Assembly (NCBI GenBank): GCA_963664705.1
Contig: OY761556.1
Location: forward strand, 2,176,001 to 2,240,000
Direction of reading: 5' to 3'
DNA: 64,000 nt
Origin: Acidobacteriota bacterium
Lineage (GTDB): Bacteria > Acidobacteriota > UBA6911
Both the position numbers and the translations under genes were made by a program. Below are positions 4,926 through 51,449 of the stretch, piece by piece (the stretch's first letter is position 1; each line of letters begins with the position of its first letter). The notes beneath the pieces are model-generated. The model was not told where the DNA came from. It saw nothing but the letters and a program-made list of their open reading frames with translations, and made no database searches.

Positions 4926-7025
4926 GTGAACAAAATACAGTGGAATACCCGTCTTGCAAGATTAGCATTGAGGAATTGTGTGAAGGCACTCTTTAGATGG
5001 AATCGAAACTCGCGTCTCCTCCTCATCCAGGCCTACCTGATTGTCATTCTTGTTTTTACATTCCTGCTCTTTGGTTTTAGCGTTGTCTCCTTCTATCGTG
5101 AACGGGAAAAAGTAAGCAGATCCAGTTTTGAGCTCAAAGCAAAACAGGTTGTCTGGGAATTGGAAAACGAGATACACCGTCATGCCGTTGCATGCCTCAG
5201 CAATACCGAGATTCAGCAACTGAGCGAATCGCTGGATCCCAATTCACTCGATCAATTGCGTCATTTGAGGAAACATCTCCAGACTCTCGAAAAAGCGCAC
5301 CCGGTGGCTCGTAGCTTTTTTCTGTTTGATGGGAAAAGCATTGTTTTCCCTCGCCAGAAGCTACCCCCTCGCCAAGGATTGCAAATGCTTTTGGCATCGA
5401 TACCGGAAGGCTTGCGACCCCGGTTTGCCGAAATCTGGCAGGAGGCAGAGGACCAGGAACGGCTTGGTTTTGCAAAAGCAGCTTCCCGCTTTTATGAACA
5501 CGCCGAACGGATGAATGTGAATCCCAGACTGAAAGCCCTTGCGGCATTTCGACAGGGAGAAGTTTTTAGGAAGGCAAACGATTATGAGGCTGCGGCAAAG
5601 GCCTATCAGCACCTCCTGAGCCTTTACGGCGACCAGTACGATCAAACTCAGACGCCCTATATTCTCTCCCTGGCCGTCGGCAGGAATGGCGCCTCTGGTT
5701 TGGTTCCCCAGGATCGACATTATTTGGAGGGAATTTACAGGGATTTGGCCAATGGTCGCTGGGAGCTAAGTTCCAAACAGGTGGAGCATTTCCTGACACT
5801 CCTTGAACAACGCTTGGACATCCCGATCGACAAACGCCGCGACTCTGATTTTCTCGAGAATTTTCGGTTCGCAAGGATTATGGAAAATCAGCTTTCACCC
5901 TCGGAGCTGAAAAATATCTCCGATGTTACCTCCCGATTTTTCGAATACGAGCAAAAGCCCTACCAGGTATACCTGACAGCCGTAGGCGGCGGAAATAGGC
6001 GCATTGTGTCAGGATTTTCGGTGTCAATTCCCTGGGTATCCAATTCACTTTGCGACCTGTTTGGCGATACCTCGAGGGGGGGAGAGAATCATCAGACTAT
6101 TTCCATTGTGCCAAAATCGCAAGTACCGGATGCGAACGACATCTGTATTCCTTTCTCAAAGGTTCTGCCTTCCTGGAAAGTGAACCTGGCCGGAGAACTG
6201 GCTCAATTGGGTGCCAGCAACGATCTCCCATTTATTGCTATATCCACTTTCATGTTTTTTTCCATCCTGTCAGTTGGCCTCTATCTTCTTCTCCGCGTCT
6301 CATGGGATATCCGCTGGCTCCACCTGCGGTCCGATTTTGTTAGCGGCGTCTCTCATGAGTTTAAAACTCCGCTGAGCTTGATTCGTTTGTATAGCGAAAC
6401 ACTTGCGGATAGTGATCAGGATTTTACACCCGAGGAAAGACGAGGCTATATCCAGATAATCACTAGAGAAAGTGAACGCATGAGTCGCCTGATAGAAAAT
6501 GTGCTCAGCTTCTCAAGGATGGAGCAGGGAAAACATAAAACTATCTCCATGCAAACCGGAGACATCGGCGAAACAGTGCAGCAAACCGTTGATGCCTATT
6601 CGGAATATTTGAAATGGAAGGGTTTTGAACTAAGCCTGTCTATCCCCTCAAGCTTGCCGCCGGTGCGCTTTAATGGCGAACAACTGTCGCAGGTCATTTT
6701 GAATCTGCTGGAAAATGCCACAAAATATTCTGGTTCGTCGAAACTAATAGGAGTAAATGTATTTGAACGCGAAAAGGAAGTTTTAATCGAAATTCGCGAT
6801 AATGGGCTGGGCATTCCTCCGGAAGAACATGAAAAAATATTCCAGCCATTTTACCGGGCACCTCAGGGAAGTGAAAAAGGAGGCTGCGGCCTCGGCCTTT
6901 ACCTGGTGGACCAGGTAATGAAGGGGCATGACGGCAGGATTGAGCTGGAAAGTGAAGTCGGGAAAGGTAGCGCCTTTCGCCTTGTCTTCAAGATTATGGA
7001 TGCTCGTCCTTATCGAAAAAAGTAA
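4926..7025 (+). CDS. Sensor histidine kinase (2 TM, large extracytoplasmic domain, HisKA + HATPase)
   Basis: H-box SHEFKTPL, N-box NLLENATKY, G1 DNGLGI, F-box FQPFYR, G2 GCGLGL. Confidence 0.95.
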   Translation: MNKIQWNTRLARLALRNCVKALFRWNRNSRLLLIQAYLIVILVFTFLLFGFSVVSFYREREKVSRSSFELKAKQVVWELENEIHRHAVACLSNTEIQQLSESLDPNSLDQLRHLRKHLQTLEKAHPVARSFFLFDGKSIVFPRQKLPPRQGLQMLLASIPEGLRPRFAEIWQEAEDQERLGFAKAASRFYEHAERMNVNPRLKALAAFRQGEVFRKANDYEAAAKAYQHLLSLYGDQYDQTQTPYILSLAVGRNGASGLVPQDRHYLEGIYRDLANGRWELSSKQVEHFLTLLEQRLDIPIDKRRDSDFLENFRFARIMENQLSPSELKNISDVTSRFFEYEQKPYQVYLTAVGGGNRRIVSGFSVSIPWVSNSLCDLFGDTSRGGENHQTISIVPKSQVPDANDICIPFSKVLPSWKVNLAGELAQLGASNDLPFIAISTFMFFSILSVGLYLLLRVSWDIRWLHLRSDFVSGVSHEFKTPLSLIRLYSETLADSDQDFTPEERRGYIQIITRESERMSRLIENVLSFSRMEQGKHKTISMQTGDIGETVQQTVDAYSEYLKWKGFELSLSIPSSLPPVRFNGEQLSQVILNLLENATKYSGSSKLIGVNVFEREKEVLIEIRDNGLGIPPEEHEKIFQPFYRAPQGSEKGGCGLGLYLVDQVMKGHDGRIELESEVGKGSAFRLVFKIMDARPYRKK

Positions 7026-23711: not shown

Positions 23712-24173
23712 CTAGCGCAAGCCGGCCTTGTAGCGAGCGCGTGGTTCATGAATTCCAGAACTCTTACGAACCCAGTTTTGGACTGTCAACCCGGGTACCC
23801 GGTCAAACTCCTTTTCGTTGTTTGTCACGAGCGGGACGCCAAGTGCAACCGCATGAGAGGCAATCCACAAATCGCTATTCCCGATGATTCGCCCTTCCTT
23901 CTCCAAAGCCGTACGAATCCTGCCATAGCAATCGCCCACATCCGCGCCAATGTCCACCACCGGGATCAGTTCCGTCAACTCGTGCAGTACCCTTTCCGCA
24001 TCAGCCCTGCTTCGACTCTTGCAGGCCCCGTGGCTCAGTTCCCCATAGGTAATCACGGATATCGCAACATCTCCCGGCTGCAATCTTTTGAATCGAGCCA
24101 GCACCTCCGCAGGACGCGCCTTCGCAATGTAGATGCAGATATTCGTGTCCAGCAGATAACGCAATGGCATCAA
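23712..24173 (-). CDS. vapC: VapC PIN-domain toxin
   Basis: YLLDTNICIY, ITYGEL, IGNSDLWIASHA and LVTNNEKEFDRV motifs. Confidence 0.93.
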   Translation of the reverse strand: MMPLRYLLDTNICIYIAKARPAEVLARFKRLQPGDVAISVITYGELSHGACKSRSRADAERVLHELTELIPVVDIGADVGDCYGRIRTALEKEGRIIGNSDLWIASHAVALGVPLVTNNEKEFDRVPGLTVQNWVRKSSGIHEPRARYKAGLR

Positions 24174-24406
24174 AAATCCTCCCGATCCTGAGGCCGTTCA
24201 TCCTCCCGCCCCTCCTGCAGGAAATCGGCCGGCAGTGACGTCAATAATGCAAATGCCCTCGCCAGGTTGCACGATTTTTTTCTCAATACAACTTCATCCC
24301 CACGCCGGAAAATTTCAATCTCATCCGAATCAAACTGAAATTCCTTTGGGAGTCGGACCGCCTGGGAGTTGCCGCTCTTGAATACTTTTGTTGTCCGCAT
24401 AGACAT
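24170..24406 (-). CDS. vapB: VapB antitoxin (AbrB/MazE fold)
   Basis: TKVFKSGNSQAVRLPKEF. AGGAGGT RBS supports a start at 24406. Overlaps vapC. Confidence 0.92.
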   Translation of the reverse strand: MSMRTTKVFKSGNSQAVRLPKEFQFDSDEIEIFRRGDEVVLRKKSCNLARAFALLTSLPADFLQEGREDERPQDREDF

Positions 24407-24407
24407 A

Positions 24408-24429
24408 GTATATACCTCCTGTATATACA
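24408..24429. promoter_or_regulatory. vapBC operator (two GTATATAC palindromes)
   Basis: GTATATAC at 24408-24415 and TGTATATACA at 24420-24429 flank the RBS. Confidence 0.7.
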
Positions 24430-24575
24430 CCGGAAGGAAATTGGCGGCGAAAGGCACGCTGGTACCGCAAGCCACACAAACGGCGCAAAACCGATTTTTT
24501 TGAAATTTGGGCGAATCTGCGGCGTATTTACGATAGAATTTTTGTGTAAATTCAACCCCAAGCGAGAGCAGAAAT

Positions 24576-25040
24576 ATGAAAGAAATCATTCGCTTTAAAC
24601 TGAACGGCAAATCGACGACTCTGGATGTCGAAGGCGATCGAACACTTCTCTGGGTGCTGCGCACCGATCTCGGATTGACCGGGACCAAATACGGCTGCGG
24701 GAAAGCCATCTGCGGCGCATGCACCGTCGTCATCAACAAAAATGCCGTACGATCCTGCCAGATACCCATTCGAGACGTTCAAGGCAAGGAAGTCATTACC
24801 ATCGAAGGCCTGGCCACCGGAGAGAAGCTCCACCCGCTGCAGGCCGCCTTTGTCGAACATGGCGCCGTTCAGTGCGGATTCTGCACTCCCGGCATGATCA
24901 TGAACGCCTATGCAATGCTTTTGAAGAATCCAAAGCTCACGCGCAAGCAGATCATCGAGGGCATGGATGACAACCTCTGCCGATGCAGCGGACACAAGCG
25001 CATTGTCGAAGCCATTGAAAGCGTTGCGACCAGGAAATAA
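24576..25040 (+). CDS. (2Fe-2S) small subunit of xanthine-oxidase family enzyme (IorA/CoxS-like)
   Basis: GTKYGCGKAICGACT, QCGFCTPG and NLCRC motifs. Confidence 0.93.
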   Translation: MKEIIRFKLNGKSTTLDVEGDRTLLWVLRTDLGLTGTKYGCGKAICGACTVVINKNAVRSCQIPIRDVQGKEVITIEGLATGEKLHPLQAAFVEHGAVQCGFCTPGMIMNAYAMLLKNPKLTRKQIIEGMDDNLCRCSGHKRIVEAIESVATRK

Positions 25041-27930: not shown

Positions 27931-28770
27931 TTATCGGCTAATCGTAAGCGCCATCCACTCCTCACGATCTTTGCGCGCGATAATCTTCAGTCCGGCGCCG
28001 GCAAGAGCTTCGGCGATCTCGTCGTAATCCGCGGGCTGCAAACCGGACAGGCACGCCGTGCCGCCGGCCTTTATCAGCCGCGGGAGATAGGGACAAAAAG
28101 ACGGCATCGTCCGGATATCCAGATTCGCAACCACAATATCGAATCCTTCCAGCTCAATATCTTCAAAGGAGGCTACGCGCAACTGCAGCTCGTCTCCAAA
28201 CCCATTTGAGCTGCAATACTCCCGCGCACATTCCACTGCCACCGGATCGTTATCCACCGCCAGCGCAAATACCGCCCCCAGGCGGATCGACGCCATCGCG
28301 AGAATACCCGTCCCCGTCCCTACATCCAGGACCCGCTCGCCTCCCGCCACGTGATGCTCCAGCCATTCCACCACCAGCTGTGTCGTCGCGTGATACCCGG
28401 TACCAAAGGCTCTCTTGGGATCAATGACAATTTCAATGCCGCTAAACGATGGGTCGGGGTCATGCCAGCTCTGCCGTATCCGGAAACGCTCCCCTAATCG
28501 AATCGGCTGCAGCGATTCCGCCCATTTCGCATTCCAATCCTGGTCTGGAACGGAGTTGACGGCCACATCCTCTGCGCCAATCGGAGCTTCGAGCAACTCC
28601 AGCGCTTTCATCAAATCCGCCAGGGCCGCCGGATTCCAACGATCCTCCGGCCAGAAAAGATGAATACGGCCATTGGCTTCCCAGGCTCCCAGCGATTCCC
28701 CGCCCTCCAGCAGGCCAAGCAGTTCGCCGGAATCCACTTCCGCCGGAATGTCGACTTCAATGTAATTCAT
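27931..28770 (-). CDS. prmA: Ribosomal protein L11 methyltransferase
   Basis: DQDWNAKW, IDPKRAFGTGYHATT, VLDVGTGTGILA, DNDPVA and VVANL motifs. Confidence 0.9.
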   Translation of the reverse strand: MNYIEVDIPAEVDSGELLGLLEGGESLGAWEANGRIHLFWPEDRWNPAALADLMKALELLEAPIGAEDVAVNSVPDQDWNAKWAESLQPIRLGERFRIRQSWHDPDPSFSGIEIVIDPKRAFGTGYHATTQLVVEWLEHHVAGGERVLDVGTGTGILAMASIRLGAVFALAVDNDPVAVECAREYCSSNGFGDELQLRVASFEDIELEGFDIVVANLDIRTMPSFCPYLPRLIKAGGTACLSGLQPADYDEIAEALAGAGLKIIARKDREEWMALTISR

Positions 28771-28840
28771 AGGAGGTGGAGTGTACCACAAGCAAAGGCT
28801 TCAAGGAGACGGCAGGATCAGAGCATGCAGAAAAAAATTT

Positions 28841-29025
28841 GTCGCTGCGCCCCGGTTTCCTTCAGCCGAATGTGCCGGAAGTTGCTGCCAAATGACGAGG
28901 TCTGTCCGTCATGCCAATCGTTATATTTAAGATCGATTGGCTCCGACAACCAGGCACGACGAATAAAACAACAAACCCATTCGCCGCTCGAGATCGGTCT
29001 TTCTGGATCCGTGGATCGCAGCGAC
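28841..29025 (-). ncRNA. Candidate ~185-nt structured non-coding RNA of unknown class
   Basis: Its 5' and 3' ends pair (GUCGCUGCG/CGCAGCGAC, extended). Several internal hairpins, with G-U pairs favouring the minus strand. A U-tract follows. A sigma70 promoter places the start at the first stem base. Confidence 0.65.
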
Positions 29026-29032
29026 TGATACT

Positions 29033-29061
29033 ATTGTGGCAAATGCCGTCCCAACCGTCAA
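29033..29061 (-). promoter_or_regulatory. sigma70-type promoter for the candidate ncRNA
   Basis: TTGACG (29061-29056), N17, CACAAT (29038-29033); AT-rich UP-like tract upstream. Confidence 0.65.
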
Positions 29062-29175
29062 GGGCTTTATGAAATATACTTTCATTATTATACATAATAA
29101 CAGCGCTTCTCTTATCAGCCTTACTGGTTCATTGAAAAACTCCAATTTTTCCGGAACTTGTGTCACAATCAGAAC

Positions 29176-29631
29176 ATGCCGTACTGGTTTGATGGCAATA
29201 ACCTGATCGGACAATCGGTTGCAGCCGCAAAAGCCGATTCGCAGGCACGGCGCGCTTTTCTTTCAACTCTTCACTCCTACCAGCGATCCGGCGGCGGCAA
29301 GTTTCTCGTGTACTTTGACGGTGATGATTCCGACCGATCCGCTTCCCCTCCTGGAATCTCGGTTCGCTACAGCGCCCCTGTTTCCACGGACGAAGCCATT
29401 CTCAAGCGTCTGCGCGAAATCGCCAGCCCCGCGGAAGTCATTGTGGTCACCAATGACTGGGACCTGAAGTCCCGCTGCCGCAGCCAGGGAGCCGCGGTTT
29501 TGACCTGGTCGGAATTTACAAACAAAATGAAAGCCAGATGCATTCGGAGCAGCCGTACCAGCCAACCGGAGCGCATAGATGTCGACGAGTGGATGCATTA
29601 TTTTGGGTTGGATGAACCCTCAGGGAAATAG
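29176..29631 (+). CDS. NYN/YacP-like PIN-fold ribonuclease
   Basis: WFDGNNLIG, VYFDG, STDEAI and IVVTNDWDL acidic NYN motifs. Confidence 0.8.
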   Translation: MPYWFDGNNLIGQSVAAAKADSQARRAFLSTLHSYQRSGGGKFLVYFDGDDSDRSASPPGISVRYSAPVSTDEAILKRLREIASPAEVIVVTNDWDLKSRCRSQGAAVLTWSEFTNKMKARCIRSSRTSQPERIDVDEWMHYFGLDEPSGK

Positions 29632-34253: not shown

Positions 34254-35633
34254 TCATGTTTTAGCGAAAATGGTTAGATTTTGGGCCATTTTCGCATAAA
34301 TGGGCTCCTTGACAGACGTTTCAATGATTTCTGTGCGTAGCAAGGTCAGTAAATCGAGCAAAGAAACGCGTGAACTGTTCGATCGCCATTTCGGAAGAGG
34401 GATGCGACAAAAATCGCGACCGGGCCCGAAACAATGCAACCCTGCCAGCAAAAGCATGGAATACGAAGCTACTGTCAAGGCCGGCTGTTTCGATACGGAC
34501 GACATCGACCAGACCTGAGCCTGTCCGACGCTAAGCACAGTTTTTTCGTCTCTATGATTGACTTCGATTTGCCAACGATCAAAGTAGCTTTGGATCAAGT
34601 CTCGGACGGGGCTGTAGGTGTCGGTCGACAGCAAATAACCTGGCTGACGAAAATTTCGGGAGGCATTGGGCGAGAGCTTATATGGTATGGGTGCAATAAC
34701 AATTAATCGCAATTGCCGAGTGCCTGCCCCACGTCGCCAAAGAACGGCTTCCACTATCTTGTAACGAATACGGCGTCTTCTTTGGCCCATCCAGATTTTG
34801 CACCATTTAAAAACAGCGCGCTGGGAATCGAGGACATCCTTAGGAGAGAAGATGTCGATACTATATCGCCGGCCACTGCCCTCGGGTGCAGGGAAACACA
34901 GGCGGGCGTCCTTCCGACATCGTGTCAGCAACTCTGTCCGGTCGAGAGGGTTTTTATAAAAACAGCGGTTACAGAAGCTCGCATCTGCGACGATTCGCAA
35001 TGTGCGATTTGTTGCCTTCATCTTGTCTAACTGGTTCCGGTAGTTTTGAATCCATTCCAACGATTGTGTGGAAAGATTATTAGCATTTTTCAATCGCCTG
35101 TATTCTTCTCGCTGCTGGTCACTGGCACGGATCCCGGGTTTCTTTACGACGGGTACGTGTCTAAAGGCCACTGGATAACCCCGCGCAGAGAATTCACCCT
35201 CGCAATGGTGCGGAAACAGCAAGGATCCTTGCAGAAACCGAAGCCCCCAAATCATGTTTACTTGAAACGGAGGCGACAAAGGATCTCTTTGCCAGCTGGC
35301 CCCTGGGATTTTTTTTCCGCTCTTTACTATCCGAGTGTCATCTACTGCTAGAACCACAGGCTTGTTCGGATATCGATTCAGATATTCTTCAGAGATCCTG
35401 TCAAACAATGCCTGCTCGTCCCAATGACTACGCGAGTAAAACTTGTAATCTGCGCTCCAGTCTTCCTGATTCCGCCCTTGCACACAGATCATCTGCGAGA
35501 TCGTCCTTCGACCCAAGGCCGAAGGCCACGTCAAAGCGTGGTCAATTCCTCGCTTCAGTGTCCGTGCTTGCTTAAAAACATCCTTCCAACTCTGCTCCAA
35601 CAAGGAACGGTAGAAGGGCAGCAGCATGATCAC
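34254..35633 (-). CDS. DDE transposase
   Basis: LAVDDT, IVADASF and YFDRWQIEVNHRDEK (YREK-like) motifs. Confidence 0.9.
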   Translation of the reverse strand: MIMLLPFYRSLLEQSWKDVFKQARTLKRGIDHALTWPSALGRRTISQMICVQGRNQEDWSADYKFYSRSHWDEQALFDRISEEYLNRYPNKPVVLAVDDTRIVKSGKKIPGASWQRDPLSPPFQVNMIWGLRFLQGSLLFPHHCEGEFSARGYPVAFRHVPVVKKPGIRASDQQREEYRRLKNANNLSTQSLEWIQNYRNQLDKMKATNRTLRIVADASFCNRCFYKNPLDRTELLTRCRKDARLCFPAPEGSGRRYSIDIFSPKDVLDSQRAVFKWCKIWMGQRRRRIRYKIVEAVLWRRGAGTRQLRLIVIAPIPYKLSPNASRNFRQPGYLLSTDTYSPVRDLIQSYFDRWQIEVNHRDEKTVLSVGQAQVWSMSSVSKQPALTVASYSMLLLAGLHCFGPGRDFCRIPLPKWRSNSSRVSLLDLLTLLRTEIIETSVKEPIYAKMAQNLTIFAKT

Positions 35634-46315: not shown

Positions 46316-46403
46316 AGCGCCTTAGGAGGGCTCTTTTGATCCCCGAACCTAACCCCGGGCTCGCAAGCTCGCCCGGGGCTACTATCTATCGCGCCTCCGG
46401 CGC
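46316..46403. repeat. Single REP-like three-hairpin unit
   Basis: GAGCGCC..GGGCTC, CCCCGGGC..GCCCGGGGCTAC and GCGCCTCCGGCGC, the same layout as 34144-34231. Confidence 0.65.
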
Positions 46404-46502
46404 TGGATCTTTGTTCCATCAGAGTGTCTCGCCGACAAGGAGCGTGGCCGCTTGCATGGCGCTGATGCCGCCGGGACGACGCCGGTCCCGGCGGAACCCC
46501 AA

Positions 46503-51374: not shown

Positions 51375-51449
<75 letters not shown>

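Follow-up and report, generated by a model that had tools for sequence, protein, structure and literature searches.

We describe a family of compact non-coding RNAs (ncRNAs) from Acidobacteriota, each encoded by a free-standing gene with its own sigma70-type promoter. It was recognized in a window of 64,000 nt (by which we mean the whole stretch of DNA that was analysed). We are highly confident that this is a real structured RNA gene: its fold is conserved, its promoter and U-tract lie at fixed positions, it is independent of its neighbours, and its copies occur with two types of promoter. The preliminary description, which proposed an undescribed structured ncRNA with a promoter of its own, is supported by homologues, by compensatory changes, by the conservation of the promoter and the U-tract, and by the lack of any Rfam match. 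As to function, we see roughly an even chance that the RNA is trans-acting and exerts its effect through a protein that it binds, either as a decoy or as a scaffold, and not through control of the adjacent genes.

The RNA gene of the window and its fold

The window copy (Table 1) scores 103.7 bits with covariance model R3 and 70.4 bits with model R2, which was built without it. It lies 60 nt upstream of a prmA-like gene on the same strand and divergently to a YacP/Rae1-like NYN gene. The names originally given to these genes are correct according to their domain matches (PF06325 and PF05991), and the prmA-like gene scores slightly under the NCBIfam PrmA cut-offs. The TTGACG-17-CACAAT promoter with a TG extension is present as had been read (29061-29033), and the DNA upstream of its -35 element is A/T-rich; a promoter scan taken by itself is near chance in the window (2 found versus 1.0 expected). 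The extended -10 shape in front of the NYN gene, fitting a leaderless start, recurs in 14 of 30 NYN loci. The RNA gene is single-copy in the genome of the window (G000), and contigs from a second study are identical to the window sequence and supply no extra variants. Elsewhere, the window contains a tRNA-Asn gene at 51375-51446 (+), two ORFs at 23712-24173 and 24170-24769 (-) that may form a VapBC-type toxin-antitoxin pair, and an ORF at 34254-35633 (-) that may encode a DDE transposase. ARAGORN reports three tRNA-SeC and three tRNA-Cys genes in G000, some of which may be false.

Table 1. The RNA gene, its structural elements and its neighbours (positions in the window)
Feature	Position	Strand	Remarks
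Structured ncRNA gene, short subtype	28831..29026	-	185-nt folded body 29025-28841 plus U-tract; predicted +1 at 29026
Sigma70-type promoter of the RNA	29033..29061	-	-35 TTGACG 29061-29056, TG extension, -10 CACAAT 29038-29033
Closing stem P1	29025-29017 with 28849-28841	-	GUCGCUGCG/CGCAGCGAC; helix 96% paired in 67 long-type homologues
P1b	29015-29009 with 28855-28850	-	continues closing stem P1
P2/P3 irregular stem	29007-28994 with 28870-28858	-	99% paired in long type
P4 hairpin	28954..28989	-	G-U rich, near-invariant core; in centroid fold
P5	28948-28942 with 28880-28873	-	closes junction holding P6, P7 and strand GGCAGCAAC
Hairpin P6	28941-28913	-	inside P5-closed junction
Hairpin P7	28912-28892	-	inside P5-closed junction
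Conserved strand GGCAGCAAC	28889-28881	-	inside P5-closed junction
U-tract 3' of closing stem	28831..28840	-	predicted intrinsic terminator
prmA-like L11 methyltransferase gene	27931..28770	-	downstream neighbour; PF06325 E 8e-54
Predicted extended -10 of prmA, TGnTACACT	28788-28780	-	predicted from sequence, close to start codon
YacP/Rae1-like NYN gene	29176..29631	+	divergent neighbour; PF05991 E 3.6e-14
Extended -10 of NYN, TGnCACAAT	29161-29169	+	6 nt before ATG; predicted leaderless

The 200 nt below the promoter fold with -74.9 kcal/mol (z -4.55), and none of 200 shuffled sequences is equally stable. The terminal stem GUCGCUGCG/CGCAGCGAC with its inner 3-bp steps, the U-tract that follows it (28840-28831) and the hairpins GCCAAUCG/CGAUUGGC, AUGACG/CGUCAU and GGCGAAUG/UAUUCGUC are all present as first proposed. 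Two other proposals had to be abandoned. The GUGCC/GGCAC helix occurs in the minimum free energy structure, but neither in the centroid nor in the family structure, where its bases belong to P4 and P5; and the pairing of CGAAUG with CAUUCG, from which two conformers had been postulated, has a base-pair probability of about 1e-5, with no populated alternative fold.

Compared with the long type of the family (see below), the window copy has a more divergent P2/P3 stem and has lost P8 (with its GGCAR loop) and P9 (with its GAAA loop), and its junction is three-way rather than five-way. The pairing of P4 is kept through changes (C-G of the family to U-A, and G-U to A-U). According to an automatic alignment, 49 of 71 consensus pairs are formed in the window copy, which occupies a long branch of the RNA tree; this weak pairing and long branch indicate that it may be under relaxed selection. 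It is best read as a shortened, inverted resident copy without P8 and P9.

Distribution and conserved structure of the family

Collecting homologues from prmA-NYN intergenic regions, as initially suggested, proved productive: when the 500 nt preceding NYN were examined at 30 loci, five of these (the window's included) contained the RNA, and this starting set has grown to 87 homologues. A BLAST-type DNA search with the window stretch over 60 relatives gave no homologue; a first model was built from the five NYN-locus copies, and later homologues were found with covariance models. The RNA is present in 19 of 51 genomes of the family, representing 8 of 11 genera, with one to three copies each, and a model built from all homologues recovers the same 19 genomes. 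It was found in none of 73 genomes from other families of the class. In a sample of 150 other genomes of the phylum, the matches were limited to one genome of the same family and a hairpin in G163; as 14 candidates were scored per genome, distant members could be missed in this sample. Model matches in G163 and G023 were rejected as plain hairpins or palindromes. A pattern scan of a species-level genome collection returned 35 matches, 29 of them scored by the model and all 29 labelled as Acidobacteriota or Terriglobia MAGs; the remaining six have no model match, read as coding DNA and were dismissed as chance. Among the metagenome matches listed (80 loci), 75 were scored by the model, while two pattern matches in viral contigs were not, and plasmid and phage records contained no match to the RNA. 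After removal of six short rows from the 136 matched, merging of identical ones to 91 and omission of four truncated ones, 87 distinct full-length homologues were retained, the metagenomic part of which comes from among the matches listed. All occurrences in the searches made belong to a single uncultured family of Acidobacteriota, to which the RNA appears to be confined. It was not found in 27 of the 30 genomes of the window copy's own genus, and is therefore dispensable there.

Family members are 185-240 nt in length, about 233 nt in the long type, whose structure was derived from a sequence-only alignment of 67 non-redundant members, after exclusion of short types and of near-identical rows. 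The irregular closing stem (P1-P3) leads to a five-way junction with linkers of 4-5 nt, joined by P4, P5 (which branches to P6 and P7), P8 and P9; the short subtype, to which the window copy belongs, has no P8 and P9. The 81 pairs of this structure are formed in 94.3% of 5418 cells (67 sequences), as opposed to 29-50% in slid-control structures. Two-sided changes were observed at 44 of the 81 pairs versus 25.9 in shuffled alignments, and none of 500 shuffles was as high; in a tree-aware test that we devised to approximate R-scape, E<0.05 is reached by 15 of the 81 proposed pairs. The structure also accounts for 19 of the top 30 covarying column pairs, and the best pair outside it extends P3. 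Most significantly covarying pairs are located in P5, P6 and P7, whereas the invariant core P2-P4 exhibits little covariation because it hardly varies. In all-against-all covariation tests the signal is weak: a single pair reaches E<0.05 with one null model and none with another.

The sense strand folds better in all 25 homologues tested (mean z -7.6). The reading frame is not kept, lengths being distributed 33/19/15 by remainder modulo 3. Invariant positions make up 58 of 162 paired columns and 17 of 73 unpaired columns, and no conserved unpaired run exceeds 4 nt. The loop of P8 is GGCAA/G in 64 of 67 members and that of P9 is GAAA in 60 of 67, while the 7-nt loop of P7 matches the T-loop pattern. 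Seven members, which are kin, have no GGCA loop; in five of these the C of the AGC strand, conserved in other members, is changed or lost, and this joint change hints at a possible tertiary contact between the strand and the loop. A natural variant at L052:1501-1718 (G009) lacks the P7 hairpin and has a lengthened P8. The predicted transcription signals occupy fixed positions: the -35 hexamer is found 35-37 nt before the first RNA base in 86 of 87 homologues, a -10 element with A2 and T6 in 86 of 87 (with the TG extension in 38), and a U-tract (at least six U in 8 nt) after the closing stem in 86 of 87.

Resident and relocated copies

Twenty-six copies adjoin prmA and/or NYN, 20 of them opposite to the orientation in the window and six (the window copy included) pointing into prmA. 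At 61 of 87 loci neither gene is present in the flank available, some flanks being short. Several genera share the synteny of the RNA with prmA/NYN; in most genus-mates of the window's genome the prmA-NYN gap is short and contains no RNA. NYN itself is present in 42 of 51 family genomes. The occurrence of both orientations at prmA/NYN, together with the 61 loci that have neither gene, argues that the RNA does not serve as a leader of prmA and has no fixed partnership with NYN. A tRNA gene with a GUC anticodon (Asp) is located 0.5-1.5 kb upstream of the resident copies in L038, L040, L044, L047, L051 and L036, beyond prmA where prmA is present.

Fifty copies, none of them beside prmA or NYN, possess a TGTGGA-type box near -66 and are found in 28 contexts with unrelated neighbours. 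A perfect DnaA-consensus box occurs in 43 of 87 homologues versus 1.2 after shuffling, and the same box word clusters round the dnaA region of G000 (its genes read by eye from translations), at the GC-skew minimum. The alternative reading of the -66 element as an NrdR box was rejected, as the left half of the NrdR palindrome is missing. Farther upstream, at -133 to -148, GTTTCC-N6-GGAAAC is present in all 49 box-type copies whose flank reaches far enough, and in 1 of 36 others; in five genomes the strict palindrome was found at three sites, all of them in front of copies of the RNA. Both the palindrome and the DnaA-type box are missing from the window copy. For several genomes only relocated-type copies were found, and the box label needs at least four changes on the RNA tree. 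IHF-like sites upstream are not above shuffled expectation (13 versus 10.1 and 9 versus 6.1).

Within a genome, copies share 91-96% identity over a unit that begins at about -135/-145 and extends slightly beyond the U-tract; their flanks are unrelated. The box-type copies, unlike the window copy, resemble a MITE or a non-autonomous IS in being a sharp-edged unit at many unrelated sites. In L188 (G067), two box-type copies (1703-2029 and 6571-6897) lie 4.9 kb apart and are 91% alike, and both break off at one and the same base immediately past the loop of P8. A permease gene follows the first of them on the same strand and may use it as a captured promoter. Whole-cassette direct repeats are found in L189 (1906-2205 and 4679-4978, G072) and in L119/L177, flanking cargo genes that differ between related lineages. 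A perfect GTTTCC-N6-GGAAAC also lies at G000:C1:4209104 (L191:1606), just upstream of a gene (G000:C1:4209132) for an ArsR/SmtB-family protein, which may be a candidate regulator acting on the palindrome, or else a coincidence. DnaA-type boxes are also seen at G000:C1:2964470-2964520 (L190), upstream of a pyrimidine-nucleoside phosphorylase gene.

Relationship to known RNAs and possible function

The RNA is not in Rfam 15, and in its way of working it resembles the orphan structured ncRNAs, but it is a member of none of the families tested. The Rfam covariance models, a check called for at the outset, gave no match to the window copy at the gathering score; at E<=10 nothing meaningful was found in the region (the best overlap is a 33-nt match with E 5.6), and at E<=0.5 the RNA gave no match at 20 relatives' loci either. 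The family profile matches none of the genome's own 6S RNA, SRP RNA, RNase P RNA and tmRNA, the last three of which were each located elsewhere in G000, in agreement with the initial reading that their signatures are lacking. Ro60/TROVE (PF05731), the partner expected of a bacterial Y RNA, was not found in G000. A hammerhead core was rejected by inspection against the consensus. The raiA motif RNA and OLE are free-standing and highly structured, with promoters of their own and conserved loops of tertiary type; they and similar orphan ncRNAs are not known to have a biochemical role. Our family resembles them only in how it appears to work: it has no Rfam match to them, is restricted to one host family in our searches and is present in one to three copies with two promoter types. 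An earlier paper lists Acido-1 and Acido-Lenti-1 as candidate ncRNAs of Acidobacteria with an unknown role (Weinberg 2010, PMC2864571). Both are other families, and neither matches our RNA; an Acido-Lenti-1 RNA (44.4 bits) lies separately at 46353-46404 (+) of the window. We found no publication describing the RNA or the palindrome, and the supplements of motif surveys (e.g. PMC8632094, PMC6429828) could hold motifs missing from Rfam.

A cis-acting attenuator or leader of prmA, suggested by the same-strand position 60 nt upstream in the window, is extremely unlikely: this orientation occurs in 6 of 87 homologues (6 of the 26 linked ones), 50 copies lie elsewhere without either gene, no fixed position upstream of a related gene set was found, no alternative fold is populated, and prmA has a predicted extended -10 of its own. 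A role as dedicated partner of the NYN RNase, or as its antitoxin in the manner of type III systems, would agree with the 15 of 87 loci where RNA and terminator precede NYN on the same strand; yet the arrangement is inverted (head-to-head) in 6 of 87, the window included, the RNA contains no repeats, 25 of the 32 family genomes that lack the RNA possess NYN (a simple tally), and NYN has a promoter shape of its own in 14 of 30 loci; we find this partnership, too, very unlikely. The frequent relocation would suit a selfish element equally well. The RNA could belong to a mobile cassette that stretches from the palindrome, as its left end, to the U-tract (about 385 bp). Such a cassette would be non-autonomous, relying for its movement on an enzyme whose gene lies elsewhere, and the copy near prmA would be a domesticated one. 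The near-identity of same-genome copies across the unit amid unrelated flanks, the 50 copies in 28 contexts, the direct repeats on both sides of unrelated genes (L188 and L189), and the restriction of the strict palindrome to RNA copies in five genomes all point this way. On the other hand, neither target-site duplications nor terminal inverted repeats exceed the control (4.9 versus 4.75 and 5.3 versus 5.0), the 59 flanking ORFs include no transposase or reverse transcriptase and a single integrase, there are at most three copies per genome, plasmids and phages give no match, synteny with prmA/NYN extends across several genera and no variable guide segment was seen; all told, we rate a mobile cassette as unlikely.

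Other alternatives concern the mode of action. The preliminary description had considered a divergent 6S RNA, and our family shares with 6S (RF00013) its size, closing stem, U-tract and stand-alone gene. Nonetheless, the genome has a separate 6S RNA at G000:C1:1247726-1247909 (79.4 bits), which our profile does not match, and RF00013 finds nothing else in G000 at E<=10, which speaks against homology. A second polymerase-binding RNA that works like 6S or Ms1 without being homologous would have precedent, as multiple 6S-type RNAs in one genome are known, but the five-way junction with short linkers differs from a rod with a large central bubble, and we consider this function improbable. The multi-junction fold, the invariant G-U pairs and the loop motifs typical of tertiary packing would also suit a ribozyme or ligand-binding RNA acting alone; against it, neither the window copy nor the 20 loci of relatives match an Rfam ribozyme or riboswitch, there is no consistent downstream gene to control, and P7, or P8 and P9, can be lost, which leaves it distinctly improbable. 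Finally, the RNA could be a CsrA/RsmA sponge of the CsrB/RsmZ kind. GacA-driven Rsm RNAs have an 18-bp palindromic upstream site, and paralogous RNA genes with a dedicated palindromic site, as in CsrB/RsmY/RsmZ and Qrr, are a feature of our multi-copy family as well; moreover, CsrA was tallied in 16 of 19 RNA-bearing genomes versus 17 of 32 others. In contrast to those systems, our RNAs have neither an array of GGA loops (8.2 GGA per RNA versus 6.5 shuffled, only 1.2 of them unpaired) nor a long conserved single-stranded seed, and G071 (100% complete, with two RNA copies) has no CsrA match; a sponge appears highly doubtful. The other two RNA-bearing genomes in which CsrA was not found are G035 and G069.

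The reading we prefer is that of a trans-acting ncRNA that binds a protein. Invariance mainly in helices, together with the shortness of the conserved unpaired runs (4 nt or less), suggests recognition of shape, most likely by a protein, and argues against antisense action; action in trans is suggested by both orientations at prmA/NYN, by the 50 copies in 28 contexts, by the one to three copies per genome and by the genomes with relocated copies only. Transcription would start at the RNA's own sigma70 promoter and end at the closing stem and U-tract, the transcript would be packed through the T-loop-like P7 loop, the P8 GGCAR loop and the P9 GAAA loop, and a protein would recognize the invariant G-U-rich P4 and the P2/P3 helices. 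The two promoter types belong to resident copies beside prmA/NYN and to relocated paralogues with the palindrome and the DnaA-type box; at the latter the dose of RNA may be set by DnaA and a dedicated dimeric regulator, so that the paralogues would either add a regulated dose to the resident copy or replace it.

Only a few complex bacterial ncRNA families of at least 200 nt are known, and to our knowledge these have proved to be ribozymes, the cores of RNPs or global regulators. All named hosts of the present family are uncultured Acidobacteriota MAGs, and genetics is therefore out of reach at present; the 87 sequences, the deletion variants (without P7, or without P8 and P9) and the two promoter types provide sufficient material for cryo-EM, for probing and for pull-downs with transcripts made in vitro, and the palindrome before the RNA copies can serve as DNA bait for its regulator. 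It is tempting to go further and to regard the family as a new class of tertiary-folded RNAs of 230 nt. Their paralogues would move around as 385-bp cassettes that encode no protein and consist of the palindrome, DnaA box, promoter, RNA and terminator, and the dose of RNA would be tied to DnaA and to the state of replication. Such an RNA would be a cell-cycle riboregulator that relocates, or would help to move its own gene; we hold this prospect to be rather unlikely.
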